The translations under genes and the position numbers were made by a program. From Phoronis australis (Eukaryota; Animalia; Phoronida): DNA of 64,000 bases. The stretch's first letter is position 1. Every line of letters starts with the position of its first letter. The stretch lies in NCBI GenBank assembly GCA_002633005.1, contig NMRA01000589.1, forward strand, positions 154,641 to 218,640, given 5' to 3'. Shown piece by piece: positions 36,895-63,161 of the stretch. The notes under the pieces are model-generated. The model did no database searches, was not told the origin of the DNA, and worked only from the letters and a program-made list of their open reading frames with translations.

Positions 36895-38345
36895 CACGGG
36901 TACCACAGAGTCATACCCACGAGCATCGCATCCTACCCACGAGCATCGCATCCTACGCACGAACGACCTATGAACCTATGAGTCATGCACACGAACCCAA
37001 AAATCACGCATACGAATAAAAATCATGCGTACGTTGAAGGTTTTTTAAAGTCCTGTTTTGAAAAAGGCTTAAGATTTATCAGAGATGTGTTTACCTCTTA
37101 TGGCGATTTCGTTAGTTTAAACCATATGATAAATGACTTCAAAGTAAAAACCAACTTTGTAGAATATATTGGTAATGTTTCTGTTCTAAGAAGGTTTAAA
37201 AAAGGCTGTTTCAAAGTAAATTTAACAGTTTTAATGTCTATTCTCTTTGCATGCCTTTAGCAATTACTCACTTACTGAAAGATTTGAACGGTTGTAGACA
37301 TACTTGTTCAATCTTTAACGACGTTAAGAAATCTTTTAAGTCAGAGTGTAAATGGGAAATAGAGTTAGAAGATAGTTTAGATTGGAATAAAATATTCGCA
37401 TTGCCTTATGAAATTACAAAGGATCCCAACATTAGACGGTTCCAATTTAGAATATTACACAAAATACAACAAATATTATTTTAGTCAAAATCCGTGCTTG
37501 GGATTCTAATTTATGTTCCTTTTGTTACAACGCTCCAGAGACGCTGTCACATCTTTTTGGGAATGTCACCCTTTACAAGATTTTTGTAAGGAATTTAGGA
37601 AACTACTTCAATAGTGTCTCTTTCAGGTTCTCAACTGTCTCTCTTATCAAAGTGTTATTCTTGAACTTTATAAGACACGTGATTTTCTATTTAAAATTTT
37701 GCTTTTACTAGCTAAACAGTACATTTACAAGGAGAGATGTCACAAAAATATAGATTACCTAAGATTCACGGGTTTGTTACATACACATATGAATACTATA
37801 ATGCTGAAAAATTAATTCCATATAAAAGTTTTGCATAAGACAGCTTCTCTGCGAAATGGGAAAAAATTATTGTTCACGTTATCTCCATGTAGCAGTTGTT
37901 TACTTTATACGAGATATGAAAATGGTCTCTCTTGAGGTGTGCATGCGTGAATGAATGGATGTACTTGTTTGTTTGTTTGTTTTTGTACTTTTGTATCAAT
38001 GGTAATAAATACCTAAAAAGTCATGCGCACGAATCACGAAAATCATACACTCGTGCATCCGAATCATACGCACGAACCACCCGGCTAGCCAAACGATAGT
38101 GTTCATGCGTGTCACTTGATGCTCGTGTGTATGATTTTTGTGTTCTTATGTATGATTTTTGTGGTTCGTGCGTAGGATTTTTGTTCGTATGCGTGATTTT
38201 GTGGGTTCGTATGCATGATGCATATGTTCTTATGCATGATGCATAGGTTCGTATGCATGATTGATGGGTTCGTATGCATGATTCATAGGATCGTAGGTGG
38301 TTCGTGCGTAAGATGCAATGCTCGAGCGTATAATTACTATGGTAC
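36895..38345. mobile_element. Foldback/MITE with ~20-bp subrepeats and inverted arms, interrupted by the LINE fragment
   Basis: 36900-37033 is the diverged reverse complement of ~38150-38345 (cgagcatcgcatcctacgcacgaac...aaaatcacgcatacgaa). Confidence 0.65.
37034..38020 (+). mobile_element. 5'-truncated LINE 3' end (L1/Tx1-like, zf-RVT region)
   Basis: KGLRFIRDVF, KWEIEL...WNKIF...FQFRILHK, CSFCYNAPETLSHLF.WEC; ends with AATAAA and a short A-run. Confidence 0.8.
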
Positions 38346-41203
38346 ACCTGGAAACGTTAAGATTACCTGTTATTTTTAAAAGTTGCTTCTTAGCTCAAAC
38401 GTTTGCAATTAGGCGCATGCACTTAATTCGGAAGTAGACATAACTTCACACATAAGTGCATAAATTTAAGCACGTACGTATCAGTTAATGCGCCAACATT
38501 TGAACACCGATATGTCCAAATATGGACCTTGCTTGTGTTTTTTACTGAACATTCATTACGAATTAGTTTTTGAGCAAAATGATTGTACCTCGGGCTCAGG
38601 AGGCTGGTTCTCGAAGAGTCTGTTGTCTTTTGGTTAAAATCAACCTGCAGACTACTTTGCCATTTCCACGAAATCAGGCTAAGGCTAAGCCAGTAAATCT
38701 GTGTTCAACTTGAAGCTGAGATTCAAATCCGTAATCTTCCCGGGAATAGACTCAAAGACAAAGCCAAAAAAAATCAACTTTTGGGTATAGACTAATGGAG
38801 AAATAGACAATAGGCTTGGATTTCCAAGAGTCAATTGCAATCAAGAACTATGCACGCTCTTTGTCTTCGGTAACCCGTATAAGTCTGTCTCAATCTGGGA
38901 GACGGTTGAATGAAGAACTCTGAATGAATCGTTTTGTGGATTTCGAAGTGAACAGTACTTGTCTATGACTTTGAGGTTTCAAATTGTGGGACACTCATGT
39001 TAGAGGTCGATTCTTTTATAAACCAGCATTATGTTTCGTTAAAACAGTAGAGTTAGAAAATGGCAATTTTTCGAAAATTTTTGAATGACAAAACTGGCAA
39101 AGGTAGGACCGGCTGCAGTCTGGTTTTAAGTGACATTATCGACGAGAATTTCTTATTTGAGAACGGTGACAACGTGGATCGAAGTTGAAACTCTAGCAGG
39201 GCAGCCAAACACCCGGCTGGAAGATCTGAATCCCCCTTAGTATTTGGAAGTGTTTTTAAATCTATTTAATTCGATTAAGTCGTCGGCCTCGATTTCAGCG
39301 AATGTCTGGCAGACAACAGCGAGAATGGCGATTTGTAATAAAATCACAAAAACGCAACAGATTTTATTGTTTACCAGTTGTCTGGTTAAAGCTAACTTAA
39401 TAACCTCAAAAATCTTTCTCAATCAACAATTGCGTTTTTGGGTTGTTAGAACGACAATGTCTCACGAATGCACATCATCCTGCAAGCGAAAACAATCTGC
39501 ATAGTAAATGTGAGTTCAACTAGGGCATTAAACTTTTAAGTTAAAACCATGCACGTACAAACTTGGGTGTCACTCTCTGCTTCGCTATGCTGGTAATGAA
39601 TACTCTCTTTTCCACTCTACTGATCTACACAAAACAAAGCGTTCAGGTATATCGAAGATACCCAAAGGACTACATTGAGACATCTCGATACGGCTGAAAT
39701 TGTAATACACATCCCGGACATTTCTAAATTCTACTCTATTCACACTATTCTCAAACCTAGAGACTCAAGGGTCAGTGGAATTGGACGGGTAGTCCATCTC
39801 AGAAACTCCTTTAAGCCAAATATTTACATATTAATTTACATATTTTAATATGTAAGAATTTGGCTTAAAGGAGTTAAATGTTTTTGCATGTAAACTGAAA
39901 TAAAACGCACGGATAGTATGACAATATACATTGGCAAGACGTTTCGAGCGGTCATTTCTTTGGTCATTTTCAGGATTAAAACATCCTTAGAAGAACGAGC
40001 TCGGGTATGTTTTAAACTCATGCTAGTCAGTGACGAGCACGTTCCGGAAACGGAATGCATTAACTACCGATTCACACAGTGTCGCTCATTCGATAAAATT
40101 CGTCATTTTCCGTACGACGTTGTAACGTACACAGATAAGTCGCTATACATTAAGCAGCAATTAACACGCTACGTCACACGGAAATGGACGAACTGTGTAT
40201 CGAATGAGCGTATTCTTGTTGTAACGCCAAACACCGCAAAAGTACTTTGTGTAATTTCTCTATGAGCTGAACACGGCATCATTTTTGTTTATAAATCCAT
40301 CACATTCAAGCCGACATTTACTGTACAATATAGTCCACAAATTTGCCACTAGTTTCCCGACTGTACAAGATGTTCACCTTTTCTCACATCTTAGAAGTGG
40401 AAAAAGGAAGTTTGGCTTCACCTTTAGTGCAGTCTTCACCAGATTATAATTGCTGTTCTTATAGTTATACACCAATGCATTGAAAGAATTACAAAAACGC
40501 CTAACACGTTTGAACAAAGTTCGATTGATCGGAGAGTCAGTCATGATTTTGTAAAGTCATTACTCTGCGGAGTGAAAGGGTTTTTGTAAGGTATGACATA
40601 ACCACAAGCTGGTTCAAAACGACCAGTCACTAGATGTCAGTGCTTTCTTCATTCGCCACCGGATGGTACTTGATTTACTTTTTATAAAACTGTTATTTGC
40701 TTTCAGCTCATTAATTTCTAGACTTGCGCTTTGAAGAATCATAGAGAAAAATGGCGAAAATTCTCTTTTAATATTTTATACATTTAGACGATGGTTGACA
40801 CCAACGAATTTTTTATGCATCCACACAAACAGAATTGGTTGCATCACAGTCAATAAACATCCACATAAACGTATGTAGCTGCCTATCGCCATCAACTCCG
40901 TCTAGCGCCTGACGTCGACTTCTCCAACACTGTTAGTAGGGTTTTCACGAACACACAGGTGTTTTCCTTTTAACGACATCTCGGCGAATGCTGTCAATTT
41001 TCAGACGTTGCATCTCAATGGGTGCACGTCATTGTTGGGTCAACCAGCTAACAACATCTGATTGATTATTACAAAGGGAGTTACACTAGGTGGCCAAATT
41101 AAGACAACCTGTCTAACTGCATTACAAAAACAAATATAAGCACCTCTTACAGTAGGCCTACACCGTTTGCGCACATCGACGCTCAGCGTTACTTTTATTT
41201 TAG

Positions 41204-44200
41204 CCGTGCACAGTAATGAAGCAGACACCAGATGCTCAGAGGGCAAAGAAAAACTTCACTTCAATTTAGATGAAGACAGATGTGCTCAGCTCAAGTCCAT
41301 AGCGAAGGCACTAGGATGTCATGTCATCGACGTTTTCGTGGCGTTTGTCTACGCAATTCTCGTACGTTACGAAGGAGCCGAAAAGTCGTCTTCTGTCGAA
41401 GTTGGCTTTGCAACTCCAAATGAAGATCAAACCTCAGAGACCACTCTATTCCTCTCAGACGAATTCCTGCAATTCACGGACATTCAGTTACCTACTGACA
41501 CACAAGGGGATGTTGCTAGCTTAATACAGTCATTCAAGACCAGCTTGGGAAAAGTAGTCAACGCTGTCTCACCATACAAGACATCTTTGCCTAACATTCT
41601 TATTGGTTTTAACTTCCCACGGGAATTTGAGAAGCATGTGGCGCTAGACAGGTTTGCAGTGCGGCTACAAGCAAACAGGTTTAAGAACAAAGACACAAAC
41701 CTTGATACGTACAGATGCACGCTTGTATACAGTGGTGAAGGCAAAAGTGCTGGCCTCCTGAAAATGTTCGAAGGGCACCTCCTTACGCTTGTTCAAGAGG
41801 TCATTGTATCACGAGAAGTCGGCAAACAAATGAATCTCTTTAGCTTACCAATGCTAACTCCAAGCGAAAAGAGTTTTCAGGATCATTACAATGACACCAA
41901 CAGAAAGTATTCTGAAGGCAAATTACTGATGCATGAACTATTTGAGAAGAAGGTGAAGATGTCCCAGGACGCAGTTGCTGTTAAATGTGAAAACGAAAGT
42001 CTTACATATGCAGAGCTTGATCAACTCTCAGATAGTCTAGCTGAACAGATATTGTCAACGGCAGGCGACAACTTGAGCAATCGCGTGGTTGGCATAAGCG
42101 TTGACGCCTCAGTCCAAATGGTTGTTGGTCTCTATGCCATAATGAAGGCAGGATTGGCTTACGTACCTTTAGACCCAAGCTACCCCGAGGATCGTCTGAG
42201 CTATATGATTGAAAACTCCGAAGCGTCATTGATTCTTGCAAAGACAGACATGACAGACAAACTTAAGAAGTTTTCAGCGAACGTCTTGTGTTTAGATGAT
42301 ATGCTCAACCAAGTAGAATTTGACCCAAACCACAACGTCATCAAGAGAAATAAGAAGGTTGACGTCAGACCAGACGACTTAGCTTACATCATCTACACAT
42401 CAGGGTCAACGGGAAAACCCAAAGGGGTAATGATAAGCCACAGAAATGCAGTCAATACAATTCTGGACATAAACGACAGATACAACATTACTGCCAAAGA
42501 TAAGTTACTCCTTGTTGCATCTTTAAGTTTCGACTTATCGGTATATGACATATTTGGTATTTTAGCAGCTGGTGGGACCCTAGTCATCCCTGTCCCAGAA
42601 ATTCGCGGTGTCCCGGATCCCGCCTGTTGGATAAAAACTATGAAGCAAGAGAGCGTCACGTTCTGGGACTCTGCTCCAGCAGTATTAAGCCTTCTGGTAG
42701 AGTATCTTCACTCAGAGGGGGACGTCTTACCTCAATCATTACGTCTTGTAATACTAAGTGGTGATCGCATACCCCTAATGCTGCCTTCTCACTTGCAAGA
42801 AATGGTGCCAAACGTACAGGTTATGAGCCAGGGGGGAGCAACCGAAGGTTCTATTTGGTCAATTTACTACCCAGTCAAAACAGTTAACCCTGCTTGGACA
42901 ACCATACCCTACGGCATGCCATTGACAAATCAGAAGTATTATGTTTTAGATGAGTTCCTGAACCCTGCACCTACCTTAGTGACTGGCGAGCTTTACATCG
43001 GTGGTCTCGGAGTAGCAATGGGATACATGAATAACGAAAAAGTCACCAGCTACCGTTTCCTCCCTAGTCCATTTAAAGACGGCGGACGCATTTACAAAAC
43101 GGGAGACTTAGGTCGATTTCACCCTGAGGGGTACATCGAGTTCTGTGGTCGCATTGACAACCAAGTAAAGATCCGAGGATTTAGAGTCGAGCTATCGGAA
43201 ATTGAATCCGCCTTGATTAACCAAGACGGTGTGGACGATGCCCTAGTCATGAAGGTTCAGGAAAAGCTTGTTGCTTACGTCATACACGACCAACATGCTA
43301 AACTAAACGCGACAGACCTTCAAAAGCATATTAGCGAAACCCTGCCAACATACATGGTGCCAGCATACATAGTTATCATGGATTCATTTCCGGTTACCGT
43401 GAACGGTAAAGTTAACCGAAAAAAATTACCTCCCGCGGAATCAACGAGCCACAGAACCGAAGGCACAGGACCACCAGACGAGACTGCCCAATCATCAGAG
43501 CTAAAACTTTCAAACAACGAACAAGCCATCGCATCTGTTTGGTGCGAACTACTGAACACCGACATCCAGTCAATAAAACCAAGATCGTCCTTCTATGAAG
43601 TTGGTGGAGATTCCATATCCGCCATGACTATAGTGACGCAGTTGAAAAAGAAAGGCTTGAGCTTGACTGTCCAACAACTTCTAAGTCAACCAACTCTAGA
43701 ACAATTGGCATTAGTAGCCAAACCCATCAAGAAGCGAGTGGGAACAAAACAACACGAAAGAGAGGCGTCATCACCAAACGTGGAACTGACTCCAGCACAG
43801 GTTTGGTTCTTTGAGCAGGAGTTTGACAACATCAATTTCTGGAACCAGTCTTTTCTCATGATACCAAAAGTTAGATTGGAAAAAGAAAAATTGTCAAATG
43901 CTGTCCATGGTCTTGTCTCAAAACACGAAATGCTGAGGTGTAAATTCACCAAAGATCATCTTGGAAAATGGAAACAGACAATAGGAAATGAAGTTTCCTT
44001 TGTTTTTGAAAATGAAGATATATCAATAGACTTACTTAACACTAATATTGACAAGCTTAGACGGTCACTTGACATTTCCAAAGGTATCCTTATTGCAGTT
44101 GGGCTATTTGAAATCGATGGAGAACAGAAAATCTTTGTCACTGTTCACCATCTTGTAGTTGATTTGGTATCGTGGCGCATAATTCTAGAAGACATCGAGT

Positions 44201-47200
44201 TTCTTTACACAGACTCCGCAACACAAGACACGACACTTTCATTTCAGCGATGGTCTTCACATCTTCAACAAAAAGCCATAAACTGTCGTAATATTAATAT
44301 GGATGACAAGTTTTGTCTATTGCACTGCGACTTCGACAGCGGTATTGTCCCACGAGCTAGTTCCAGAAGCGTTCTCTCAACTAAGCTACCTCATGACATC
44401 ACTGCCCAACTGACGACCACTGCGAACGATGCTTTCAGAACCACTACCGTCGACCTCCTCTTGACGACACTGATGCTGTCGTACAACCACTGTCTTGGAA
44501 AATCGGCCCTCCACATTGACGTGGAAGCTCATGGGCGTGAACCCTTAGATGCAGACATAGACATATCTCGTACACTCGGCTGGTTCATGACAATGTTTCC
44601 TCTAAAGCTTGAAGTCACACGAGAGCAATCGACAGAGGCAACACTTGAAAGCACAATTAAACGTACAAAAGAAGCGATCAGAAAAATTCCGCACAAAGGA
44701 ATTACATTCTGGTTATTGAAATATTTGAAGTCGCTCGACAGCATCAGCTTTCCATCGTCAGACGTCTTGTTCAACTACTACGGGAGGTTTGACCAGATAC
44801 AAACAAGAAGTGATTTCTGGGACATGGATCCGAGTTATAGCTCTGGCGAAGATGAATTTGATGAAAGCGAAAAGCTAACTCATAAGCTAGTTGTTGAATG
44901 TTACATAAAAGATGAGCTTCTTCATCTTAAAATGTTCTACAGTACCGACTTCCACAAACCTAACACCATTCAAATTTGGCTACAGAAATGGAAAGAGTCG
45001 TTGCTAAAGACTGCTCGACACTGCGCACAAAATGGAGTGCAAGGATACACCCCATCAGACTTCCCGCTTTTGAGCCTGTCACAGGGACACTTGGACTATC
45101 TCTTGGCTACAAGATTAGCGCAGCTTGATCTGAAAGCCGAGCAGATTTCGGATATGTATCCCTGTACACCAATGCAAGAAGGTTTCTTGTTCAGTCTGTT
45201 ACAAGATCCGTCATCATATCTCATTCAACGGTCTTGCACGGTGAACGGTGATCTCGATCAAAATCAGCTTCACCAGTGTGTGGCAAAGGTCATCCAGCGA
45301 CATGATGCACTGAGGACAAGGTTTTTCGTCGATAGACTCAATGGGTGCATGCAAATTGTTCGAAAAACACATGACACAACCTGGGCAGTCGAAGATTTGT
45401 CAAATGTCACGGAGTCTCAGGCGGAGGAAAGAGAGCAGCAGTATTTGAGTCAGGATCGCAAAAGAGGATTCAGCATGTCTGAGTCAATGATTCGATTCTG
45501 TCTCTTTGTCCTGACAAAGAGTAAACATCGACTCATTATGACCGTGCACCACAGTTTGTTAGACGGTATGTCCTGTTCCATTTTGTTGCAAGAAGTTGTC
45601 CAAGCCTGCAACAATTCGGCTTTACCGGAAGCGCCAAAATACAGAGAGTTTGTCCAAGAGGTTATGGTCTCGAGGCAGAGTGCCTACACATCAGAGGGAT
45701 TTTGGAAGGAAGAGATGCAGGACCTCCCTTTCCTTGGGAACCTTCGCATGCTGTCCCCAGTCACACCTCTTCGAGGTCACGAAGTAATCCTGGAATCATT
45801 TGACGTAGTTCCAAACTTTTCAGCATACACTGAACAACACGAGATATCGCCTGCTGCGATACTGTGTGCTGCATGGGCGTTCATCATCAATAAGTACTCT
45901 TGTGATCCAAATGACGTCATATTTGGGCTCATAGTGTCTGGGCGAAGTTCATCAAATATCGACCAAATTAATAAGATGGTTGGTCTAACTATTAACACTC
46001 TCCCGATGCGGGTTAAAATTCAAGATCACCACGTCACCGAATGGGTAAAGTATGTACAACGAAAAATTGCATCCATTACAGCTCAAGAAAAATCGTTCAC
46101 GACTGATATTCAAAAGTGGTGTGGTCTAAACCCAGACGATAAGTTATTCGAAACCGCTATTTCTTACCAAACGGCCCACACAGAAGTTGACCAGACTCCA
46201 CACGGCATTAGTATAACTGATGTTTATGACCACGAATATACAGAATATCCCCTGACTTTAGACATTTTAAATACGGGTACGTCTTTTCAAGTGAAAGCGA
46301 TTTACGATACCAAAATTATTGACGTTCTAGCACTGAAACAGATGTTGATGCAGTGGAAACAAGTCATCGGTGCCATAGTTAAGTCCGGCAATAGCTATAA
46401 AGTGTGCGATCTAAATATGCTCTCTAACGAAGAAAACACGATCGTTCGAGAATTCAATACTCCAAATGAATTCGACATAACCTTTGGTCATGTGAAAGGT
46501 GTTCATCAGCTGTTTGAAGACAAGATGAAGTTTTTACCAGCCAGTCATAAAGCTATTGAATCAAGACTCGGTTCTCTGACTTATGAGGAAGTCAACAATG
46601 CCGCAAATTTCATTGCTTCTCAACTGCGTGTCCTTGGCGTCAAGCGGGAGAGCAAGGTCGGCTTACTGCTCGATCGCAGTGAATCCATGCCAGTGTGCAT
46701 GCTTGCAGTCTGGAAAGCAGGAGGAGCATTTGTTGCGATTGAAGACTCGCTTCCCAGCGACAGAATCAACTTCATCCTTCAAGACAGTGGATGCACAGTT
46801 GTTGTTAATGCTGCGAACATCCCGTTAGACGACATAGCAGGACGTTTGGCGCAAATCACAGTGAGCAGAAGCGATATTTGCGACTACGCTAGCCGTCATA
46901 GGGAAAACTTAGCGAGCTTAAACGCATGGCAAGACCTTGCATATGTGAGCTACACGTCAGGATCCACTGGACGGCCTAATGGGGTTTTAATTGAACACGG
47001 CGGGATAATTAATCTTTTGCTGTGTAAGCCTGGAGGACTGTTTCAAGTCTCGCAAAAGTCACGAGTCATGCAATTCTTTTCCGCTAGTTCTGACAAGGCT
47101 GTAGGTGAAATATTTGGAACACTTTGCCATGGCGGATGTCTTGTTATCGCCGATGAAAATTTCGCAGAAAGTCTTAAGTCTGTTGACACAGCTACACTTA

Positions 47201-50200
47201 TGCCATCAGGATTTGGAATGCTGGACTTTAACGATTATCCCAATCTTGAACTGATCGTTTCAACCAGCGAACCTTGTACCCAAGTGATGGTTAATTCTTG
47301 GGGGCGAGACCGAATTGTGGAAAATGCTTATGGGACAGCTGAGTGTAGCATTTTTACCAATGTTGGCCGCCTTTTGCCGCACAAAAGAATAACCGTAGGA
47401 AAGCCTTTGCCAAACACAAAGAGTTACGTCCTTGATAAAAATCTGAGCTTATTACCAGTGAACGTAACAGGACATCTTTACATCGGGGGAGTTGCCGTTG
47501 CACGAGGTTACCACAATAGACCAGATTTAACTGACAGTGCCTTCATTGAAAATCCTTTCGACAATGGATACTTCTATAAGACAGGCGATTTAGCTAGGTG
47601 GCTGGACACGGGAGAGATCGAAATAATTGGTCGTCAAGACAGCCAGGTACACTTACGAGGAAAAAGAATTGAGTTGATGGAAATAAGATCTGCACTCGAA
47701 CAACTCCCAGAGGTAAAACAAGCACACGTTGTATTGCAAGACAAGCAGTATATAATTGCTTACGTGGTAGCGTCAGCTGAATGCGACATCATTGATAGGC
47801 TCAAAAGGCAACTGCCTAGTTTCATGGTGCCAACATCAGTTATTTCCGTGGATTTTCTCCCGTTGACATCGGGAAATAAGATTGATGACGCTGCTCTTCC
47901 CAAGTTCACTCCCAAGCCATCTCATGATGACTCTCGAACGCCACTCAATGACTTGGAATTTCTGACTTTGAAAGCATACAAAGAAGTTATAGATCCCAAC
48001 TTCACTATGGACGACGATTTCTTCAGTCTCGGCGGTCATTCACTTCTCGCGATAACATTGAAAACTGTTTTGGTTGAGAGTCTTGGATATGAGATTTCTA
48101 TGACGGACATCATGCGATACACAACACCTGCAGAACTTGCAGATCAACTGGGTAGAAGGATGTTAGCTCCACGGAAACTCCAAACATCTACCAGACTTAT
48201 TCCAAAATCCTGTCCATCGGATGAAGCTGTTATTAAAGAACGAACTTCCTTTCATCAAGAACAAATGTGCTTGTTGTACGAAGTGATACAGGACAGCCCA
48301 GTGTACAACGTGTCGCTCATTTTGACTTTCCGTGGTCAGCTGAACGTTGAGTCTTTGAAACAGTCACTCATCGCGGTAACTCAAAACCATCACTCATTCA
48401 GAACAGCTTTTGAAATTGCAGAAGACAAATTCGTGCAAGTAGTGAGACCGGTGAACGAGACAGCATTTGACTTTGAATACCATGAAGGTGAGCACAGCGA
48501 AGCCGAAACGAGAGAGATCATCTACACAGAGGCATCCAAACCGTTTAACTTGTATAAGCTTCCACTAGCAAGATTCCGATTGGTGGAACTCAATGCACAA
48601 GAACACAGAATGCTACTCTTGATGCATCATGCAGTAACAGACGGTGCTTCACTGAAGATCATTGTGGATGAAATGTCCGAACGTTACCACTGTTTGTCAG
48701 AAAATCTTAATTATAACGTACCTCCCCAAACCCTGGAATATATTGACTACAGCATCTGGGAGAGAAGTGTCCTAGAGACCGAAACCTTTGAAGCTCAACT
48801 TTCTTTCTGGAAACGCCAGTTGGAATACGCTCCTTCGTTACTGGATTTACCGTTGGACAGACCCCGCCCAGCAGTTCCGTCATACGACGGTGCGTCGGTG
48901 TTCTTTTCTATTCCAGAAAGTGTGACAAACAANTGTTAGCTCCACGGAAACTCCAAACATCTACCAGACTAATTCCAAAATCCTGTCCATCGGATGAAGC
49001 TGTTATTAAAGAACGAACTTCTTTTCATCAAGAACAAATGTGCTTGTTATACGAAGTGATACAGGACAGCCCAGTGTACAACGTGTCGCTCATTTTGACT
49101 TTCCGTGGTCAGCTGAACGTTGAGTCTTTGAAACAATCACTCATCGCGGTAACTCAAAACCATCACTCATTCAGAACAGCTTTTGAAATTGCAGAAGACA
49201 AATTCGTGCAAGTAGTGAGACCGGTGAACGAGACAGCATTTGACTTTGAATACCATGAAGGTGAGCACAGCGAAGCTGAAGCGAGAGAGATCATCTACAC
49301 AGAGGCATCCAAACCGTTTAACTTGTATAAGCTTCCACTAGCAAGATTCCGATTGGTGGAACTCAATGCACAAGAACACAGAATGCTACTCTTGATGCAT
49401 CATGCAGTAACAGACGGTGCTTCACTGAAGATCATTGTGGATGAAATGTCCGAACGTTACCACTGTTTGTCAGAAAATCTTAATTATAACGTACCTCCCC
49501 AAACCCTGGAATATATTGACTACAGCATCTGGGAGAGAAGTGTCCTAGAGACCGAAACCTTTGAAGCTCAACTTTCTTTCTGGAAACGCCAGTTGGAATA
49601 CGCTCCTTCGTTACTGGATTTACCGTTGGACAGACCCCGCCCAGCAGTTCCGTCATACGACGGTGCGTCGGTGTTCTTTTCTATTCCAGAAAGTGTGACA
49701 AACAAGCTGATGAGCTTGACATATAAGTTCGGGGGAACGATGTTTACAGCACTTCTTACGGTATATGCACTCTTGATACGCATATACTGCCAAGCAGACG
49801 ACATTGCACTGGGAGCGTTTGTTTCCGGAAGACACAACCAAGGTACAGAGAATATCGTGGGTTATTTTGTGAACACCCTCCCTCTTAGAGTTAAGTTTAA
49901 CAAGAAACAAACGTTCAACGATATGCTCATTATGATTAAAGACCTTATGCTGGATGTTCTAAACAACCAGGACGTGCCTTTTCAAAAAATCTTAGAAGCA
50001 CTCAGCATCCCACGTGACACAGCCTACCACCCAATCATTCAAGCCGCTACGATCTTGCAAGAAGGACTAGCAAGCAGACAAGTTAGTAAAGGGTTGAACT
50101 TAAACGTTGACAGTTTCGAACAGTTCACAGCAAAATTTGATTTAAACTTGGAGTATTTACGACATCCGAATGGCCAGATTTCAGGGCAATTTGTTTACAA

Positions 50201-50548
50201 TACTGACGTCTTTAACAAGTCCACTATTGAGCGGATGACTGATCACCTACTCTATTTGTTCGATTTGGTTACAAGAGACTGTGACACTCCAATGAACCAT
50301 CTGTGCATGCTACCTCCCAAAGATTTGGAGCGCATAATGTCTTTCAACACGACTGGAGACTGTACGGACGTTCGCATCCACCGACAGTTTGAAATGAGGG
50401 CAGACGAGTCGCCAGAGGAGATCGCGGTCGAAGAAAAAAGGCGCCATATAACTTATGGTGGACTGAACAAAGCCGCAAATGACTTAGCACGTCAGCTGCG
50501 ATCACTTGAAGTGACCTTTGATGTACCAGTGGCCTTGCTGGGAGAAAG
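41204..50548 (+). CDS. NRPS giant exon: half-C, A1 (~41930-43440), T1 (Ser 43612), E1 (~43780-45070), C2 (~45150-46430), A2 (~46490-47910), T2 (Ser 48040), C3, start of A3
   Basis: ORFs 41167-48939 and 49038-50552; acceptor ttttag at 41203; donor AG|GTAAG at 50549. Confidence 0.9.
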
Positions 50549-53500
50549 GTAAGAAATCATTTATTTTGGTAAAATTTAACGTCCCAGTGACTTACAGGAG
50601 TTTTCCGCAGATAAGCCCACCCGATGAAACGCTCATGGGCGTTTATTTGGTGTTACAACTGGTATCAAGTGTCTAGATAGTGGGCCGTTTATTCGGAAGA
50701 TTTCCTCTTAAGAGCCCACAATGAGGTCTGGAGGTGCACATTAATCTTCTTGTCCCACTGGGCAGATATTGCAAAAATTCATGGGCTGTTACACAATTAA
50801 CGTTGTTAACCCGCATTCACAACAATCCTTTTAGGACTACCAATCCACCCAGAAAGGCTGTTTCACTTACAAAAAATACGTACAGCGCTTCCTTTCGTCA
50901 TTTGCGTAGCCGAAACTATGACTTTCCATTTACACGCCCCCTTTTCCGAATAAACGCCAGGGCGTTTATTTGGCGTTACTAAAACGCCTGAAATTTTTCA
51001 CTTTCCGAATACACCCCATGGCTTATCCCCGGAAATATCGGTATTATGGAAAATCTTGTTTTAACATTGGTAAAACATCACCACTCGGATGCTTGTGACA
51101 TGTGGCAAAACTCTTCGCTTTTTCATGTTTTAGGACGTCCTTGCCAAATGCCAACTCGAACTAATCACTATGGAAATATATACATCAGTTACCTACTTTT
51201 TGTTTTAGAAACCTTGAGCTCATCGCTGCTATCCTGGGTACATTAAAAGCAGACGGAGCCTTTGTTTGCATAGACGTATCCTTGCCCCAAAATCGCATCG
51301 ACTACATGCTCGAAGATTCGGAATGTCACGTTGTCGTAACCTCGCAACGCATCCTTAATTCCGGAATCCTAAAGCATTTTGGGGGACATGTCATATGCCT
51401 AGACATAGAGAAATGCACAACAAAATACCCTATTCGTCTCAGCTCTGATAAAGACAGAGAAGTGCAAGCCCAGAGCAAAGTGACGTCCAGTAATATGGCA
51501 TACATAGTATACACATCGGGGACAACCGGGAAGCCGAAGGGTGTTATGGTAACACACAAAGGCGTAGAAAATCTTATCCCAAAAATGAACAAGGCGCTAG
51601 GTGTAAGGAAGGGAAGGAAAATAACACAGTTCTTCAACATAATGTTTGATGGCGCGTATCAAGAAATATTCATGGCGCTCTCCAGCGGAGCTACTCTTGT
51701 ACTTCGTGAGACGGACTACCGCAACACGTTGAAGTCGGTGGACTTTTCTATGATGACGCCAACTGTACTTGCATCTTTGGATCCAAGAGACTTCCCAAAC
51801 CTAAAAACTGTGGCTGTTCTTGGCGAAATATTGCCCGAATCTGTGGTCGCGTGCTGGGAGGATCACGTAGACTTATTTAATGAATATGGCCCGTGCGAGG
51901 TGACAATCAACTGTACTATTGGTAAGGTGAATAACAGATCGCAAGTGACAGCTGGAAAGCCAATAGAAAATTGCACGACCTTTGTGCTTGGAGACGACAT
52001 GAACCTGGTTCCAATTGGCGTGAAAGGAACAATTTTCATTAGCGGACTCGGTGTTGCAAGAGGATACCTCAACAGACCGGACTTGACCCTTCAGAAATTT
52101 GTAGATAATCCATTCGGTGAGGGTAAACTCTACAACTCCGGAGACGTTGGATGTTGGACCGACGACGGTGAACTCGTGGTCAATGGACGAAAAGACAGAC
52201 AGGTAAAGTTCAAACGGTGATCATAAGATGGGCTGTAATTTTTTCACAATGATGTCTTGCTCGCAATCCGATCTTTCCCAAGAAGTTTCGAGATATTCAT
52301 TGTCAGTTTGCCGTATGACTGTTGATAGGACAATAAACGGATAGGACGTGAATTTTAACGAGCTTTTATGATACTATGCAACAAATAAAACTGGTATGTT
52401 ACATAACTTACGTTCAATGTGTATAACTGAGACATAGCTTCAATACTACGACAAGAATTTGTCATGCTGCTTTGCATTCTTTATTATTCATTCCCGTGTC
52501 AACTCAATCAAAAATTGATAAACCCATGGGTTTCAATGGTCGTTCTAGGTCAAATTGCGAGGATTTCGAGTAGAGCTCGGGGAAGTGGAACACGCGCTTG
52601 CTACGTTGGAGGGCATTGGGAACGCTGCTGTGTTGATGAAAAAGGACATTTTAGTAGGATATGTCACGCCCGATATCGGTAAGTGTGTCAATCCGTTTAC
52701 TTAGACCGGTTTCCGGTATGAAATTGATCCTAACTTTACCTAGATGAAGATTGATTTCTGGGTTATGGAAAAGCTGGCAGTAAATTATTGTTTGCGAACG
52801 TGCTCGGCACATAACGTGACTGACACACTGTGACAATCCAAATTATCGAGTCTGATCCCAAGCAATAATGAACTGTGAGTTCTTCTACAACCCAGGAATT
52901 TTGTATCCGTCAGTGTCATAAACTAAAAGTTGTTTACGGAAGGCGAGTTAATAGCCGCTGTAAGAAGCCACTGCTAATGGTCACCTCGATGTCAACAAAT
53001 TTTTAATTGAAACTAAATGAGCCTTATTTCGCTATCTGAGTAAAATCATTTTTGTTTTATATCTCGCTGAAGCTGCAGTGTGTCTACAATCTCTTCTCAA
53101 AATCTTGTCTTCACAGGCACGACGAAAGCCCAAGAGCTTAAACAGAAACTCGAAGAAACTCTTCCGCGGTATATGATACCCACAGTGATCGTTCCTCTGG
53201 CAAAATTCCCAATGTCAACAGCCGAAAAGGTAAATTATCGCGCATTGCCCGAACCGAACTTAGTGCAACAGGAAACTGCCACAACAAAAGAAAAAATGCT
53301 CATACAAATTTGGAGCGAAGTTCTTGGAATCAGCCCATCAAAGATCAAACCAACAGATTCCTTCTTTTATTTGGGTGGAGATTCAATTTCTGCCATGAAA
53401 GTTTTCACTTTGGCAAGAAAACAAGACTTACGATTCACAGTACAACAAATTTTCCAAACGCGGAATTTGTCTCAACTCGCAGCTGTAGCCAAATTTGAAA

Positions 53501-56500
53501 AGTCATCTATAGAGGCAGATCAAGTCGAGATTTCTGGACTCATACCTTTGACACCAATTCAAGAGTGGTTCATAGGCTTGGACATGATGAACCTCAACCA
53601 TTTCAACCAGTCTGCTCTCCTCAAGCCTCATAACATACTTGATGCTCAAGCACTTCAGAAAAGCATTGACAAACTTGTGTCGCATCATGACATGCTTAGA
53701 GTAAAGTTCCATTTCAGAGACGACGGTACAGTCACGCAAGAAATCAAATCTTCAAATGATTGCATAAAACCAAAACTATTACACAAAGCTGTATCGCAAG
53801 ACCAGGTGAATGACACACTGCACCAAATTCAATCATCTTTGAGCATAACAGATGGCCCTGTTGCAGCTTTCTGCCTGCTAGACGTGAAGAGTCAAGGGCA
53901 GTTGCTCTTCATAACTGTTCATCACGTCGCAATTGACTTGGTTTCATGGCAAATCCTTCTTGAAGACCTTGAGCTGTTGTACTTAGGCAAGAAGTTACAA
54001 CCTAAAACAACGTCGTTCAAAGCATGGTCAGAGGGTCTCTCGAATGAGTATCGTTTAACTATGTCAACAGATACTTGGCCCAAATGGCAGAATACAGCAT
54101 CAAAAACTTTTGATCACTTCCTGTACGGGAACAAGATTAACGAGACTGGGGAAAACCGCACACTGAAACTGGAAAGTATTTCACTTCATGCTGAAACAAC
54201 GGGCAAACTGCTTTCTCTTCAGGGAACCCAGGGGAGCGATTTAACTTCCGTTAACGACGTGTTATTGACTGCCTTAATTGTAGCATATCACAGATGTACT
54301 GCGATGACATCTCTTGCTGTAGAACAAGAATGGTTTGGAAGGGAACCTTGGAATGAGAAATATGATGTGTCCAGAACAGTAGGTTGGTTTACCGTCATGT
54401 ACCCTGTTACAATGACAATTGACAAAAATGGAGAATTGGAAGATCATCTTGAAAAGACAAAATCAATTCTGCGACGAGTTCCACAAGGCGGGCTTCCATT
54501 CGGTGTCAATAAATACCTGAATAAAGACGAAGACTACAGGTTCCACCAAAGTTGTGACGTTCTCTTCAACTACCACGGTAGTGCAACACAATTTTCCCAA
54601 GACCTGACGCTTTGGGACGTATGCATGGATGGGGAATTCGTCTTCACAAACCGAGGCAAAGATGAGAAGTTATCCCATAGTCTTGTAATTGAGTGTTCCG
54701 TGCAAGACGAGTGTCTGAAGTCAATGTTCATTTATATGCACGATCAGAGAAGTCCGTTCATAAAAGAATTGGCTTCAACCTGGCTCGAAATCGTCAATTC
54801 CATTATGTCAACTTGCAAAGTAATGCAGGTTGATAAAGGCATAGATCCATCCAATGATACCCTTCCTGCGCTTAATACAACTCAAATCCTAACAGACAAC
54901 GACACCGAAGCCATTTACGAATGTACCCCACTTCAAGAAGGTTTCATTCTTTCACTGCTTCAAGATAAATCTTCATATCTTGTCCAAATGGCAATGGATA
55001 TTGAAGGAAAGTTGGATGTACCACGGTTCATAGACGCTTGGAATGTAGTCATTCGCCGCCACCAGTCTCTAAGAACCTCGTTTGCAATCGAAACAAAGGA
55101 CCACATGTTGAGGCAAAACGTCAGAAGACAAGCAAACATTCAGTGGACAAAAGATCACTGGACGGATCCACTGCAGCAAGAGAACGAGTATGTGATCAAA
55201 GACAGAAACGTAGGATTTGAAATGAAGGAGGTAATGATGCGCTTTGCGTTAATGAAACAACCTGATGACACATACAGGTTTATCTGGACGACCCATCACT
55301 CCCTGATTGATGGTTGGTCAACTCAGCTCGTGTTAAGAGAGGTTCTCTTAGCCTATCATCAACAGGAACTGCCTCCTCCACCACCTCCATTCCAAACTTT
55401 TGTCGAGTATTGTAAATCGCGAAATACTTCAGCCGCAAAGACTTTCTGGGGTGAATTCTTTGAAAACTTACATTCAAAGTTTTTAATTACCGGAAAGGAA
55501 ACCGTAAGACCCAAAGAAGTCTCATCGTCAAATGTGAAGAATTTCACCAAACAACTTGAAGTACGCACTGATAACCTCTGGCGTTTTGCACGTGAAAACA
55601 GTCTAACAATTTCCAGTGTCGTTTTTGGTGCATGGTCTATCGTGTTAGATAGATTTTGTAGCAATGGAGGGAACGATTGTGTGTTCGGCGTGGTACTGGC
55701 TTCCAGGAGTGCAGAAGTTGAAGGAATAGAAGACATGGTAGGTCTCTTGATTAACACATTGCCACTTCGAATCACATTTCCAACGAGTGCAGGTATTTCG
55801 ATGCTTGACTGGTTGCATTCAGTACAGTCCCGCCAAAGCAGTATAATGGAGTACGACTACTGCAACTTAGCAGATGTCGTACGATGGAGTGGCCTACCAA
55901 GAAACCAGAATATCATGGATTCTTTGGTAATTTTTGAAAATTATCCTCCGATGCACGACGTGGAAAACGGCGAAATAGCGCTCACTAATCTCCAAGCATA
56001 CGAGAAAGTACAGTTTCCCATAACAATAGAGGTTGCCGCGGACTCCGACTATGTTAGTGTCACGTGCATGCATGATACCAGCCGGATAAGCGATGATCTA
56101 GCTAGCGAGATGCTAGATTACATGAACAGTGCAATCAAGGAGCTGCTCAACTATGACACAGAGAAACCGATAGTTGAAATGGACATCGTCAAGGCGAGAC
56201 CTGGGAGAGATGCCAAAGGAGTACGTTTGGACATGTGGAACGGGGTGGGATCCACAAGCCAACTTAAATGTTATATCAGGGATCAAAAGGGACGCATGAC
56301 GCCACCAGGTATTGCCGGAAAACTAGAGTTCAGCACTAGTAATGGCGAGGCATGTCAAACGAACGTTGTGGCTCTGCTACATAACAACGGCGATATAAGC
56401 GTTTTATGCAAGAAAGGCAATTACGAACTTGAGGGTGCAGTTAAGTATGTTACGTTTGAAACTGAAGAGGGCGCGATAGCACTTACTCAGAAACCAGTTT

Positions 56501-59500
56501 CTTTTGAGGTTTTGAAAGAATTTCAAAAAAAGCACCTCAAGTGTATTCCAGTTCACAGCATTGAGTTTGTTCACGAAGAACTCATCAATCTCGTAACAGA
56601 TGAGGTAACGATCGATCAAGTGAGCACAATACAGGAAACACAGAGAGAAAGATTCGTTGACGAGTTCCAGATGACTTATTCCCAGAAACTGCTAAGAGAT
56701 ATTTGGAGCCAACTTTTAGAAGTACCGCGGGATGACATCAAACTTGACCACTCGTTCTTTGACTTAGGTGGGACATCTATAAAGGCAATTAGCATGACTT
56801 CTTTGGCAGAAAAGAAAGGGCTGCATTTGAATTTAAATGACATCTTGGAGTATCAAACTCTCAGAGGCATTTCAGCTGCTGCTAAGACACAGACAGGTGA
56901 GTTTTTCAAGCAAAATATTTCGTGTTTTCGAACAAAATTTAAAATTAGTATGTCTTTTAATAAGTATGCTAAAGAAAACTAACATTTCAGGTATTTTACA
57001 GGCATAAGTTTTTCATAATTGTTAGAATTTATTCAGGAATAACAAACCATTTTTTCTGCAAGAAATTAAACGGCCAACATAATGTGCCAGAGCCTTGGTA
57101 GGCGAAACAGTTGGCCAACTCTGAGAGTAATTACAGTTTCGTTACTCTCAGGCCATCGTAGTTCGTGTCCACCAGAAACTTTATCAGAAGCATTTCAACC
57201 GATTCTTGGAAGTTTTAGGTAGCTACTTCAGGTTCCTAAATCTCTACAGTCATTTATACCAAACCAATTAAAACAAATGAACGTGAGAGGGGACTGTCCA
57301 CGAAATGCAGGCGCTAGTAACAGACTTCGGGGTTATATGTGTTTGAATTCCACGAGGACCAGGCAAGTCTGGTAGCAGAAAATTAATGGAAATGTACACT
57401 GCACGCTCTTAAAAACCATTTAGAAAATTCTACATTTTCTACACTATTTCGTTGAACTGATATCTTCCGCCAAAAGTATTGCAAAGGCATAATTATTTAA
57501 TTTTGGTCCTTCAGTTTATCTGTCTTTTTAGAATTTCCAGCTTCGGTGATATCAAAACTTGACATTTCGTGATGAGGTCATTGCTTACAAAGTCGCTTGT
57601 TTCCTTGTTTTTAAAGTGACATGCTTGCTTCGCGTGGCACAAGTATGACCGACTGAAGTATTTTTACTTATTAACAAATTTTAACTTCTTACAGACAATG
57701 CAAACGACATTCTGGTGCGTCTGAATGAAGGAGAGAAGGACCGTATACCAATCGTTTGCGTCCACGCAAGCGATGGTGGCACGTCATCCTACGCGTACCT
57801 AGCAGGTAAATATTTCGCGTGTCCATTGTTGTTATTACATGTACTGCACGTGCAGTGCAGGTGACTGCGTACGAGTCCTCTAACTACAGTAGTAACCAAA
57901 CTGAATTGGAAAAAATACTGTTTGCCATCATGACGGCTACTTACCATCAAAAATGATTACTTACCACCAAGGCGGCAAACTTCTAATTACAGAATGGCTT
58001 ATAAGCCACCATATTAACTTTCCTGTTAACTGCTCTCCATTCTCGGTCACAAATGAGAGAAAATTTTTCTAACGACGAATTTGACTTCGGCCCAGCCATC
58101 ATGACGGGGAATCCCGGGTCATTTTTTCTGAAACACTTCTGGCTCGCGCTGTGCATAGATCTCTTCGTCGGAGGTATAAGCGCAAGAGGATTAAAGAAAC
58201 TTTATCGGCATTATTACAGGGAAACTCATTTTGGGAATTGTTGTTCGGTGGGATAAACTTCTTAATTTTATTACTTTTGACCAGCTTCCCGTCCAGTAAC
58301 GCTAGGACGTTGCTAAAAACCGACTTCGCGAGATTACGTGACATGATATTGTCGTGTATTGAGAACATGTGACTTTGGCTTGATTTTAGCTAGGTCCCAG
58401 CGTTACTGAACGCACGCCAGAACTATCGAAGAACATCTATCGTCTTTTTGTGATTTTATTACAAATTGCCAATTTTCGACATTTCCTGCCAGGAATTCGC
58501 CGAAACCAAGGCATGTACGCTTAACAACTCTGATATTTATCGAGGGGCCTTAGCTCTGTTAGCAGACCATAGAACTGTGATGGGGGGGTTGTATGCAGGT
58601 TTGATTGATCGCCGAGAGTGATCTCACAAAATTATTTTTCTCGCCAATAATGTCCCTTCATACCGCCAACCAGACCTTGCTTCACTCAAAGCGAAAAAAC
58701 GAACGAATACGCGAATACTACTACATGTATGGAACGGCCGGCCACAAATTCGTGAAACTGTGAAAAACGGAACACAGCGAATGATATGCACCACCCAACC
58801 AGTAAATAAAACAAGCCCTCGGTGAGGGTTTGCAGAAAACGACGTTTTTACAGAACCTGAGCTTATACCAGGTTCGCTAGTAGGCTCACAGCTGTTGTTT
58901 ATGCAAAAATGAGCTGAACTCCACCAGCCTGTATACATAGGTGTTGGTTCATTCTACATATAGTAACAGAAAAGCAGGCGGCAAATCTCATACTTTAGTA
59001 GCAAAATAAGAGCGAAATCACGAGAAGCTGAGTTCATAACCAACGCATTCAAAGCCCTTAGAAAGGATACACAGAAGGTTGTTGGATGTTTTATGTTAGC
59101 TAGACCGCCATCCGACGGTAATACTCGGAACTAGAGAAAATATTAGATAAACACTATGTCGAGCAGCTACAGAACGGAACACGTTTCACGCACTTTCCAC
59201 CAGAAAAAAGGCACACGCAGTTCTGTTGTACAAAAGATTTGAAATTATCCATTGGTCATGAAAGAGCATTCAACCAAACACTCGCCTATACTCTTGAGGA
59301 AACTTAATGACGTACTATCACGTGTTCATTTTGCAGGCAACTTAAACCGACATCCATTATACGCATTCCGCTTAAAAGAGGATACACCATTCGAGTCGAT
59401 TGAACAACTTTCTGCTTTGTACGTGGAAAGAATGGTCTCACTCGACTTCTTCGCCAACGTGCAACCATACTTACTGGTGGGGTATTCAACAGGAGGCGCA

Positions 59501-59977
59501 GTGGCGTTCGAGATGGCGCTTCAGCTTGAGCTAAAGCAATACCCACCCGCCAGACTGGTTCTGCTCGACGGCACACCAGAGTTTATGCGGAGAACTTATC
59601 ACGGCATCAGTAGTAAAAGCGAAGACGAAATTGTCGATGTAAAGAATTTCTTGACAAAAACGTGGGACGAGAAAGGACTGGACAAATCTGACCTTCAGAG
59701 AGCGTTGACCAACTTCAACAACACCGTCTCTCAGTACGCTAGCTACTCGCCGACTGAATTGTACCACGGCAGCACCGTTCTTGTTCAGCCAGCTAGCAAT
59801 GAAAATAATGAGTTGTTGATGGCGGCTATCTCGCAGATGCCAAGTGAAGATTATGGGCTACAGGCGCTGTGTACCCAACCTGTGAAGATCGTAGTGGTGG
59901 AGGGAGATCACTACAGCATGATGCGAGATGCAGACGGAGTGATATCTCATACAGTTGTGGAAGGACTATCTCAGTAG
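41204..59977 (+). CDS. Multimodular non-ribosomal peptide synthetase, C(half)-A-T-E-C-A-T-C-A-T-E-C-A(remnant)-T-TE, >=4,740 aa after removing the 772-bp assembly overlap
   Basis: Exons 41204-50548, 51209-52202, 52549-52678, 53117-56896, 57695-57805, 59337-59977 join in frame with GT-AG introns. A-domain P-loops YTSGSTGKPKG, YTSGSTGRPNG, YTSGTTGKPKG. Carrier motifs GGDS, GGHS, GGDS, GGTS. C-domain HHxxxDG x3. E-domain HHxxxDLVSW, ExxGRE and RTxGWF x2. TE motifs GYSTG and GDH. The start codon is on an unlocated upstream exon. Confidence 0.93.
48161..49705 (+). repeat. 772-bp direct duplication separated by one N (probable haplotype overlap at a contig join)
   Basis: 48161-48932 and 48934-49705 differ by about six substitutions, mostly synonymous; N at 48933. 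Confidence 0.9.
50593..51043. mobile_element. Tc1/mariner-like MITE inside an NRPS intron
   Basis: TA-flanked diverged TIRs TACAGGAGTTTTCCGCAGATAAGCC / GGCTTATCCCCGGAAATATCGGTA; internal subrepeats gcgtttatttgg and ttccgaata. Confidence 0.5.
51209..52202 (+). CDS. NRPS exon: core of adenylation domain A3
   Basis: AYIVYTSGTTGKPKGV, FDGA, NEYGPCE, GVARGYLNRP, YNSGD, GRKDRQ; donor CAG|GTAAAG. Confidence 0.9.
52549..52678 (+). CDS. NRPS exon: A3 A8 motif and Asub start
   Basis: Translates VKLRGFRVELGEVEHALATLEGIGNAAVLMKKDILVGYVTPDI, completing GRKDRQ|VKLRGFRVELGEVE; this frame is not in the ORF track. Confidence 0.9.
53117..56896 (+). CDS. NRPS exon: end of A3, T3 (Ser 53383), E2, C4, remnant A, T4 (Ser 56776)
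   Basis: LPRYMIP, LGGDSISAM, LTPIQEWF, HHVAIDLVSW, SRTVGWFTVMYP, WTTHHSLIDGWS, FFDLGGTSI; donor G|GTGAGT. Confidence 0.9.
57695..57805 (+). CDS. NRPS exon: N-terminal part of thioesterase
   Basis: Translates ILVRLNEGEKDRIPIVCVHASDGGTSSYAYLA, a typical TE start (P..CVH..xG...Y..LA); phase 1 at both ends. Confidence 0.85.
58280..58420 (-). mobile_element. Repeat family A copy inside the last NRPS intron
   Basis: gacttcgcgagattacgtga...ctaggtcccagcgttactgaacgcacgccag is the reverse complement of the copies at ~15843 and ~22960. Confidence 0.75.
59337..59977 (+). CDS. NRPS terminal exon: thioesterase catalytic part
   Basis: [32 protein letters not shown]; acceptor ttgcag; stop TAG. Confidence 0.9.
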
Positions 59978-61970: not shown

Positions 61971-62768
61971 AGCTGAAATCCTGCTGTATCAGGTTAGCAT
62001 CATGACGTCAAGGAAGTAGAACAAAAATCCAACTCACTTCTCATCTTCCAAAATGATTATTGATTAATTAGTTCAGATATAAGTGAACAGTATGTCGTTA
62101 ATAACCAGGTAATGGGAATATCGATATTTTTCTTTATCGTCCCAAAAATGCTAGGCCAAGTCGAAATTGAAAATTTCAAAAATGAATTAAATCAAATTAG
62201 CGGTGGTCATTAATTTCCCCCTTCATGCAATAATGATGTTAGAGGTAACTTGAAAAGCCTAAATTCTTGTGTTAAAAACAAAGGGTGCTATCTCAAAAGG
62301 GGAGAGCGGCATGGAGCTTCATGAGTTTAATATTTCACGTAATTGAAAGCGTAAAATTACGATGACTTCAATTTGTGTGTTACGTCAGGCAAAGTTGAGG
62401 CCACGGTGGACAAAAGACCGCGTAAAGCTGTAACGAAACCACAAAGCAAAGAGTTTCAAGTTCTTTATCGGAGATAAAGGTAGGCACTTTCCCTGTCTTT
62501 AAATATTATTTTGAAACATTCCGGTGTAACTTTACATGCTTTCTAAATAACACTGCCACTGCCTAAAATAAGTGTGATTTTAGAAAACGTTGCAAATATC
62601 TAACTGAATAGGATACGAAAACTGAAAATTGTTTCCAAAAATAAACAGCTTAAAAGTTTTGCCCTTTTGTATTCGGAACAACAACTCGTACCCGTTGTCT
62701 TAAATATTTAATGTATTTCCAGGCATCTACAGTTCACACCTGTATTGACAATAGAAATCGACGATATA

Positions 62769-63161
62769 ATGAATACGCGTATTCTTCTCGTCTGTATCTT
62801 GGGAGGAAGTTTTCTGGTGGCCGAAGCGCGCCCGTTGATGCCACGAGATACATCTCGTAAACCATCAGATGCATCCCAGCCTTCCAAACCTACTAAGAAA
62901 GTAGACGAAGGTACATGTAGACAACCTAAAGCGCAATTGTGATAATCACAATTTAATGAAACGAAAGATTCTTATTTAATCCAAGATTTTTCACTGAATA
63001 CTTCACAGTGTAAAGTCATTCGAGATCCCCGTCGATGAATTATTTAACTGTTTCTTCTGTCTTTTTCAGTCATAATTTCCTTCGTTCTGTTTGCTGCAAT
63101 TAGCGGTTCAGTGACATGCTTTGCTTGGATCATAAGCGACTTGTTCCTACCCCAATGGTAG
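62769..63161 (+). CDS. Small single-pass membrane protein, 77 aa (signal peptide + short polar ectodomain + TM)
   Basis: Exons 62769-62910 and 63070-63161 join in frame: MNTRILLVCILGGSFLVAEA-RPLMPRDTSRKPSDASQPSKPTKKVDE-VIISFVLFAAISGSVTCFAWIISDLFLPQW*. An upstream acceptor lies at 62722. Confidence 0.55.

Follow-up and report, generated by a model that had tools for sequence, protein, structure and literature searches.

A probable animal nonribosomal peptide synthetase gene of Phoronis australis with the remnant of an adenylation domain in its fourth module

How might a nonribosomal peptide synthetase (NRPS) module work when it has no intact adenylation (A) domain of its own? The question is raised by a 64,000-nucleotide stretch of DNA from the phoronid Phoronis australis (assembly GCA_002633005.1, contig NMRA01000589.1, positions 154,641 to 218,640 of the forward strand; hereafter the window, numbered from its first nucleotide), which carries an NRPS gene with such a module at its end. 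An earlier inspection of the letters and open reading frames (ORFs) alone, the sequence-only reading, had described the ending as C-deltaA-T-TE, that is, a condensation (C) domain, a vestigial A domain, a carrier (T) domain, and a thioesterase (TE), and had proposed non-linear chemistry for it. After five GT-AG introns were spliced in silico and a 772-bp duplicate was removed, the gene gave a single stop-free frame and a model of 4754 aa. On the basis of our own hidden Markov models (HMMs), the domain order is N-terminal C-like fragment-A1-T1-E1-C2-A2-T2-C3-A3-T3-E3-C4-dA4-T4-TE, where E denotes epimerization and dA4 the remnant. The proposed order of the ending holds, with the correction that the TE lies not in the ORF at 53080-56982 but on two further predicted exons. 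Repeated C-A-T modules, core motifs, and a release domain, as recognized by Pfam, NCBIfam, and motif reading, identify the gene as a multimodular NRPS, and catalytic motifs are present in all three A, both E, three C, and four T domains and in the TE.

The interval between C4 and T4 spans 162-173 aa, according to the T4 start chosen (56170 to 56655/56688), in an enzyme in which a full A domain takes up ~500 residues. The ORF at 53080-56982 is free of stops from C4 (HHSLIDG, 55294-55314) through this spacer to T4 (GGTS, 56767-56778), and the spacer contains 0 stops in frame versus 3-13 in each of the other five frames. The earlier description of ~160 aa lacking a P-loop or substrate pocket between intact HHSLIDG and GGTS motifs was borne out, and the two motifs that it had quoted were located at 56269-56325 and 56374-56406. 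No counterpart of the P-loop, the substrate-binding Asp, the A7 Asp, or the A10 Lys was found in the spacer, which had no match in Pfam and nothing significant against A1-A3 of the same gene (blastp E>2; HMM E 0.04-0.08). Against an A-domain profile made from 250 of 732 full A domains taken from 284 fetched proteins, the spacer scored 6.3 bits (E 1.3e-4), a value reached by 0 of 2000 shuffles; among 46 non-A windows the highest score was 0.1. The significant part was a 28-residue A5-A6 stretch, in which the profile match falls on motif A6 and is preceded by an A5-like stretch; the A7-A8-like part reached no significance in the sliding test.

Other methods gave a similar but fainter picture. 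HHalign placed spacer residues 31-104 on A6-A8 with a probability of 9.6%, which 0 of 60 shuffles matched, and HHalign and MAFFT gave a weak colinear extension as far as A8 and into the small subdomain. A deletion-tolerant chain alignment was unstable: at a gap cost of 6 the reversed spacer beat the real one and shuffles matched it in 5 of 300 trials, at gap costs of 8 and 10 the matching shuffles numbered 1/300 and 0/300, and a non-A window scored 26.5 against 27.9 for the spacer. The single-sequence structure model of dA4 had a pLDDT of 33. With an imposed A-T alignment, T4 was modeled at pLDDT >90, residues 31-70 of dA4 formed strands (pLDDT 50-62), and the small-subdomain part was mostly <50; the Foldseek matches of this model to A-T structures are circular, as is the fold itself. 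In searches with dA4-T4, relatives covering dA4 were absent from 182 matches among 1851 candidates, from 14 among 2488, and from the best 150 of a representative search, the matches being driven by the T domain. Metagenomes yielded 0 of 73 stretches in a first scan and, in a second, 73 loci of which none was closer than ~35%. The ESM Atlas at a threshold of 0.9 gave no match for dA4 or for the ORF at 21260-22324, and none of 10 window ORFs was present in an exact look-up of a protein collection. We take the spacer to derive from an A domain and read the remnant as real, old, and catalytically dead, with an ancestry that is real but faint.

The sequence-only reading had allowed that a full A4 might be missing from the assembly. 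At the DNA level it is not: a contig of a separate assembly (X1, another haplotype, possibly from the very sample that gave the window) runs continuously over 53076-57920 with 28-29 differences and an ungapped coding part, and because this independent contig crosses the region without extra DNA, no A4 has been lost there. No further A-domain pieces were found in any frame of the window. An X1 contig also passes from 48508 to 49282 without the second copy of the 772-bp duplication. This duplication splits C3, and automatic annotation would break there.

A distant orthologue, P0285 (4451 aa, ENA; cluster mate P0405), was recovered with T1-E1-C2 as the query at 1199 bits, versus 888 for the next protein. 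Among 404 proteins, P0285/P0405 was the best match for A1, E1, C2, A2, T2, C3, A3, E3, and C4 (31-51% identity), and it was not the best match for T1, T3, T4, or TE. The A1 domains are 51% identical, and C4 (31%) is as similar as C2 (31%). When the two enzymes are compared, C4 matches C4 best in both directions, and so does T4 with T4 (42% identical, GGTS in both); the two C4 domains are sisters in the C-domain tree (SH 91). In a FastTree of 93 A-domain rows, the two A1 domains pair as sisters (99) within a mostly bacterial set of DLSVY-type rows, and A2 and A3 of both enzymes form a clade (97) that joins early-diverging fungal domains (chytrid, zoopagomycete, and Calcarisporiella) in a larger group (100). 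The orthologue follows the domain order of the window gene up to T4, and its C4 (HHALLDG) leads through a ~45-aa linker to T4 (GGTS) with no A domain. Because this orthologue without A4 retains the His motif in C4 and the Ser in T4, a fourth module without an A domain is likely old and maintained; because it does without dA4, the remnant is likely a dispensable leftover spacer. The simplest reading would be one old loss of A4 that went to completion in one lineage and stopped part-way in the other, and two losses or a later insertion of an A fragment are possible. With no catalytically complete A domain here and none at all in the orthologue, the fourth module belongs with the A-less C-T units of non-linear NRPSs, and the earlier proposal of a vestigial A domain beside an intact C4 and T4, with non-linear chemistry, is strengthened by the orthologue.

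The sequence-only reading had not mentioned the spliced, eukaryotic nature of the gene. The introns carry GT-AG borders, X1 contigs run from exon into high-copy repeats, and the repeat in intron 5 recurs at three sites (15.9-23.3 kb) among or just past the exons of a neighboring multi-CUB gene. Because of the introns, the repeat shared with the CUB-gene neighborhood, and the contigs that enter repeats, the NRPS gene is read as a eukaryotic one, predicted to be spliced, that likely lies in animal DNA.

What the upstream modules might supply was judged from the A-domain pockets, read by eye with GrsA numbering. The A1 pocket of the orthologue reads D-L-Y-N-L-S-L-I-W-K, which we take to be a Cys code, and that of the window differs at three positions. 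The best single-module match of the window A1 in the Protein Data Bank (PDB) is bacillamide BmdB (E 1e-117), presumably a Cys-activating enzyme. Given the BmdB match and the pocket reading, the A1 substrate is probably Cys-like. The A2 and A3 pockets of the orthologue look aliphatic, and those of the window are unusual (Lys beside the conserved Asp in A2; Glu in A3).

Our favored model, to which we give about an even chance, is that T4 receives its residue from one of the enzyme's own upstream A domains, all three of which are intact. By the pocket and PDB match, A1 would activate a Cys-like residue, which E1 would invert; C2 would join this D-Cys-like residue to the L-residue on T2; and C3 would pass the dipeptide onto the residue on T3, which E3 would invert. 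An upstream A domain, most simply the adjacent A3, would also load T4, with C4 as the docking platform by analogy with SidC; C4 would then make a D-to-L bond, and the TE is predicted to release a D-Cys-like/L/D/L tetrapeptide by cyclization or hydrolysis. In the tree, the window C4 (top PDB matches: a McyB fragment, PvdL, and TycB) falls among the usual elongating C domains that follow E, and C-T-TE endings without an A domain do not cluster as a separate clade. Among the variants listed for the gene, 43 are coding (28 synonymous, 15 non-synonymous, and 0 nonsense; pN/pS 0.15-0.21). No stand-alone A domain was found in the window. Upstream loading is preferred because of the precedents of SidC and HcpA, and among the mechanisms offered by the sequence-only reading it is the best supported on that ground. 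In SidC, A3 charges the A-less T4 and T5, for which it depends on the C domains of those modules (PMC10192304). HcpA has an A-T-E-C-A-T-C-A-T-E-C4-T4 frame with an L-residue at position 4, and the paper on it cites HMWP2, whose single A domain loads three carriers (PMC4041764).

Several observations weigh against this model of a working, internally loaded module. HcpA has a spare A domain, whereas the window enzyme has none. P0285 stops soon after T4, with no TE seen, near the intron position of the window gene; it, too, may be spliced. RNA coverage is weak in runs X5, X6, and X7, of each of which about a fifth was sampled: 43 (X5) and 55 (X6) reads fell on 6.7 kb at depths of 0-3, and X7 had depth in 3 of 30 bins only, at intron repeats, with nothing outside repeats. 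No spliced joint reached the threshold in these runs, and intron depth resembled exon depth. In X5, about four-fifths of the depth away from repeats comes from pairs whose first mate lies on the plus strand, which, read as in most stranded libraries, could mean antisense RNA. None of the variants listed falls in dA4 or T4. Finally, in the sample of proteins with domains called, A-less terminal modules followed E domains only, a restriction explained at least as well by the relay considered next.

In this alternative, which was missing from the sequence-only reading and which we hold possible though on balance doubtful, C4 adds no residue but moves the D-ended tripeptide from T3 to the thiol of holo-T4, checking its chirality, so that the product would be a D-Cys-like/L/D tripeptide. 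The relay would let the TE reach a peptide that E3 would otherwise keep apart from it. Among 407 proteins with domains called, 51 (42 clusters) end in a TE, 4 clusters with other endings being left out; the last module lacked an A domain in 4 of 10 clusters when it followed E versus 0 of 28 when it followed T (Fisher p 0.003). The queries behind this sample were T-E-C and C-T, the window itself is among its members, and 6 of the 10 post-E terminal modules keep their A domain. Endings of the E-C-T-TE type arose separately at least four times (the window with its orthologue, Bordetella P0314, Thermoanaerobaculia P0318, and the metagenome locus L039), which speaks for a relay; internal A-less C-T units, where no relay to a TE is needed, follow both E (23/341) and T (30/858), and C4 represents no distinct C subtype, which speaks against one. 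The C-T pair of GliP reportedly works by thioester transfer. A partial precedent is that GliP needs this terminal pair, which lacks an A domain (PMC11610984; PMC9030297). More tentatively still, the gene could belong to an old animal NRPS family making D-amino acids, in which a C-T-TE cassette relays the epimerized peptide to the TE by thioester transfer; bacteria would have reached the same chirality-checking exit independently, and the gene would preserve an A domain caught part-way through deletion.

Compared with charging of T4 by an upstream A domain, loading in trans by the A domain of another gene, such as a paralogous NRPS, is unlikely, though possible as the sequence-only reading had it. 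Trans-acting A domains are known, and X6 reads (9 + 5) carry 41 bases of the A3 pocket (51624-51664) with other flanks, which suggests a second, expressed A3-like NRPS sequence. These 14 reads come from one run and may derive from another organism in the sample, and no A-domain gene lies in the window. It is very unlikely that the fourth module is dead or skipped, with the TE taking the chain straight from T3. The severe decay of A4 and the low, unspliced-looking RNA coverage would fit such a module, but two lineages ~35% identical have both retained the His motif of C4 and the Ser of T4, and the variants listed in C4 are 4 synonymous to 1 non-synonymous. Release of the tripeptide by C4 onto a free amine, as the sequence-only reading had also suggested, is most improbable: terminal C domains that accept amines are known, and C4 is intact without a cognate A domain, but T4 and the TE would be superfluous, yet T4 is 42% conserved, with its Ser present in both orthologues, and the TE of the window gene has a complete triad.

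GGTS is no marker of A-less carriers, occurring in 2 of 4 C-T-TE cases and also in 14 of 893 A-T-C cases. No A remnant was found in the long C-T spacers of eight fungal-type loci and L039 (best E 0.03), so long C-T spacers need not be A-derived. Seven loci (L047, L072, L079, L082, L095, L096, and L103) encode fungal-type NRPSs that end E-C-T-C(-T) with C-T spacers of 130-230 aa free of an A remnant. L039:1256-9546 encodes a bacterial-type single-A NRPS (C-A-T-E-C-T-TE) followed by a gene resembling Sfp-type phosphopantetheinyl transferases, and offers a small, tractable E-C-T-TE model.

To our knowledge, few animals other than rotifers, nematodes, and springtails have multimodular NRPSs with C and E domains. 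ACV synthetase (ACVS) is laid out A-T-C-A-T-C-A-T-E-TE and makes Aad-Cys-Val; the window gene, with two E domains, a Cys-like first residue, and an extra C-T, does not belong to this class of three modules ending T-E-TE, because E1 is present and C4-T4 precedes the TE. Fungal siderophore NRPSs have hydroxamate-activating A domains and no E domains; the gene was not assigned to them, given its two E domains and the grouping of its A domains elsewhere (in a tree without named SidC or NPS6 rows). The ending of the lugdunin enzyme LugC is said to be E-C-T-R. The bacterial P0314, P0318, and L039 resemble the window in their E-C-T-TE ending, intact HHxxxDG, and carrier Ser, but their linker is ~30 aa without an A remnant and their origin in the C tree is independent.

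A close likeness by domain order is HcpA, the fungisporin synthetase of Penicillium, with an A-less fourth module after E and D/L/D/L tetrapeptide logic; HcpA has a displaced fourth A domain and ends C-T, whereas the window gene has three intact A domains and a TE (PMC4041764), and the gene was excluded from the HcpA/fungisporin class on these grounds. SidC shares A-less modules, with inter-module loading demonstrated by mass spectrometry (PMC10192304), and NPS6 shares a degenerate-A module, dA-T-C (PMC2823734); both are siderophore enzymes, and the available portions of these two papers describe no E-C-T-TE ending or animal host. Malformin synthetase MlfA likewise has four modules, a product with D-Cys and aliphatic residues, and one module proposed to act twice, but it is fungal, a cyclizing C domain is predicted instead of a TE, and it is taken as a resemblance only (PMC6298953). 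ACV synthetase, with copies in springtails and Plectus, is comparable in being animal-encoded, in activating Cys, and in having both an E domain and a TE; the same survey of 1059 animal genomes reported NRPSs in several phyla and classed its seven Cnidaria antiSMASH rows, the rows compared here, as all likely contamination or inconclusive (PMC10531068). No animal NRPS of the present architecture was found in the literature searched, which did not extend to subscription papers and preprint supplements. Since A-less and degenerate-A modules are already known in fungi and bacteria (SidC, HcpA, NPS6), what is new is, tentatively, an animal case of this architecture. If this is true, the animal would itself produce a D-Cys-containing peptide, of a kind usually attributed to microbes. 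The orthologue pair, with a decayed A4 in one and none in the other, is a natural experiment on the origin of A-less modules. Because E-C-T-TE endings recur in bacteria, deciding between loading and relay would correct product predictions for bacterial clusters as well.

Table 1. Coordinates of the NRPS gene, its domains, and the duplication within it
Feature	Position	Strand	Basis or remarks
Spliced NRPS gene model, 4754 aa	41167..59977	+	Five GT-AG introns, Pfam, own HMMs; true 5' start not fixed
A1, probable Cys-type adenylation domain	41845..43437	+	PDB match, orthologue identity 51%, pocket by eye
T1-E1-C2	43474..46416	+	GGDS; HHLVVD and EAHGRE; HHSLLDG
A2-T2	46411..48156	+	P-loop, TGD, A10 Lys, GGHS
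772-bp direct duplication around a single N at 48933, in C3	48161..49705	+	Copies differ at 6 sites; assembly artefact
A3, split over four exons	50301..53256	+	P-loop, SGD, RGFR, A10 Lys
T3-E3	53257..54813	+	GGDS; HHVAID; EWFGRE (Glu kept, His replaced)
C4, post-epimerization-type condensation domain	54886..56169	+	HHSLIDG at 55294; PDB matches; orthologue C4 as sister
dA4, what is left of the C-terminal portion of an A domain (like A5 and A6, weakly like A8), without catalytic residues	56170..56655	+	
T4 carrier, Ser in GGTS	56656..56883	+	Pfam PP-binding; pLDDT >90
TE exon 1 (predicted)	57695..57805	+	AG/GT sites, in frame
TE exon 2 (predicted): Ser in GYSTG 59480, Asp in LLDG 59561, His in GDHY 59903	59337..59977	+	Pfam Thioesterase, E 3e-17

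At the 5' end of the gene, the ~225 aa before A1 (41167-41844) resemble a degraded C-terminal half of a C domain (blastp E 0.04 at best), and the leader before A1 in the orthologue is of similar length. There is no in-frame ATG near the start of the model; a missing 5' exon is suggested by RNA reads further upstream and by a probable splice acceptor near 41200. The high-copy interspersed repeats lie in introns 1 (50560-51020) and 5 (57860-58530), with summed contig depth in the thousands, and joints on opposite strands suggest that these repeats have inverted ends. Elsewhere in the window, a multi-exon gene with many CUB-like exons occupies 1400-22330 (CUB-type matches in 9 of 95 ORFs scanned), with a transmembrane segment and a cytoplasmic tail apparently encoded at its end (~21490-22327). 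A reverse-transcriptase fragment is present at 34172-34561 (Pfam RVT_1, E 6.5e-5), and the sequence at 37200-37700 looks LINE-derived by eye. Downstream of the NRPS gene, 62720-62910 on the plus strand appears to be the start of another gene; the encoded N terminus resembles a signal peptide, and an intron likely follows 62911.

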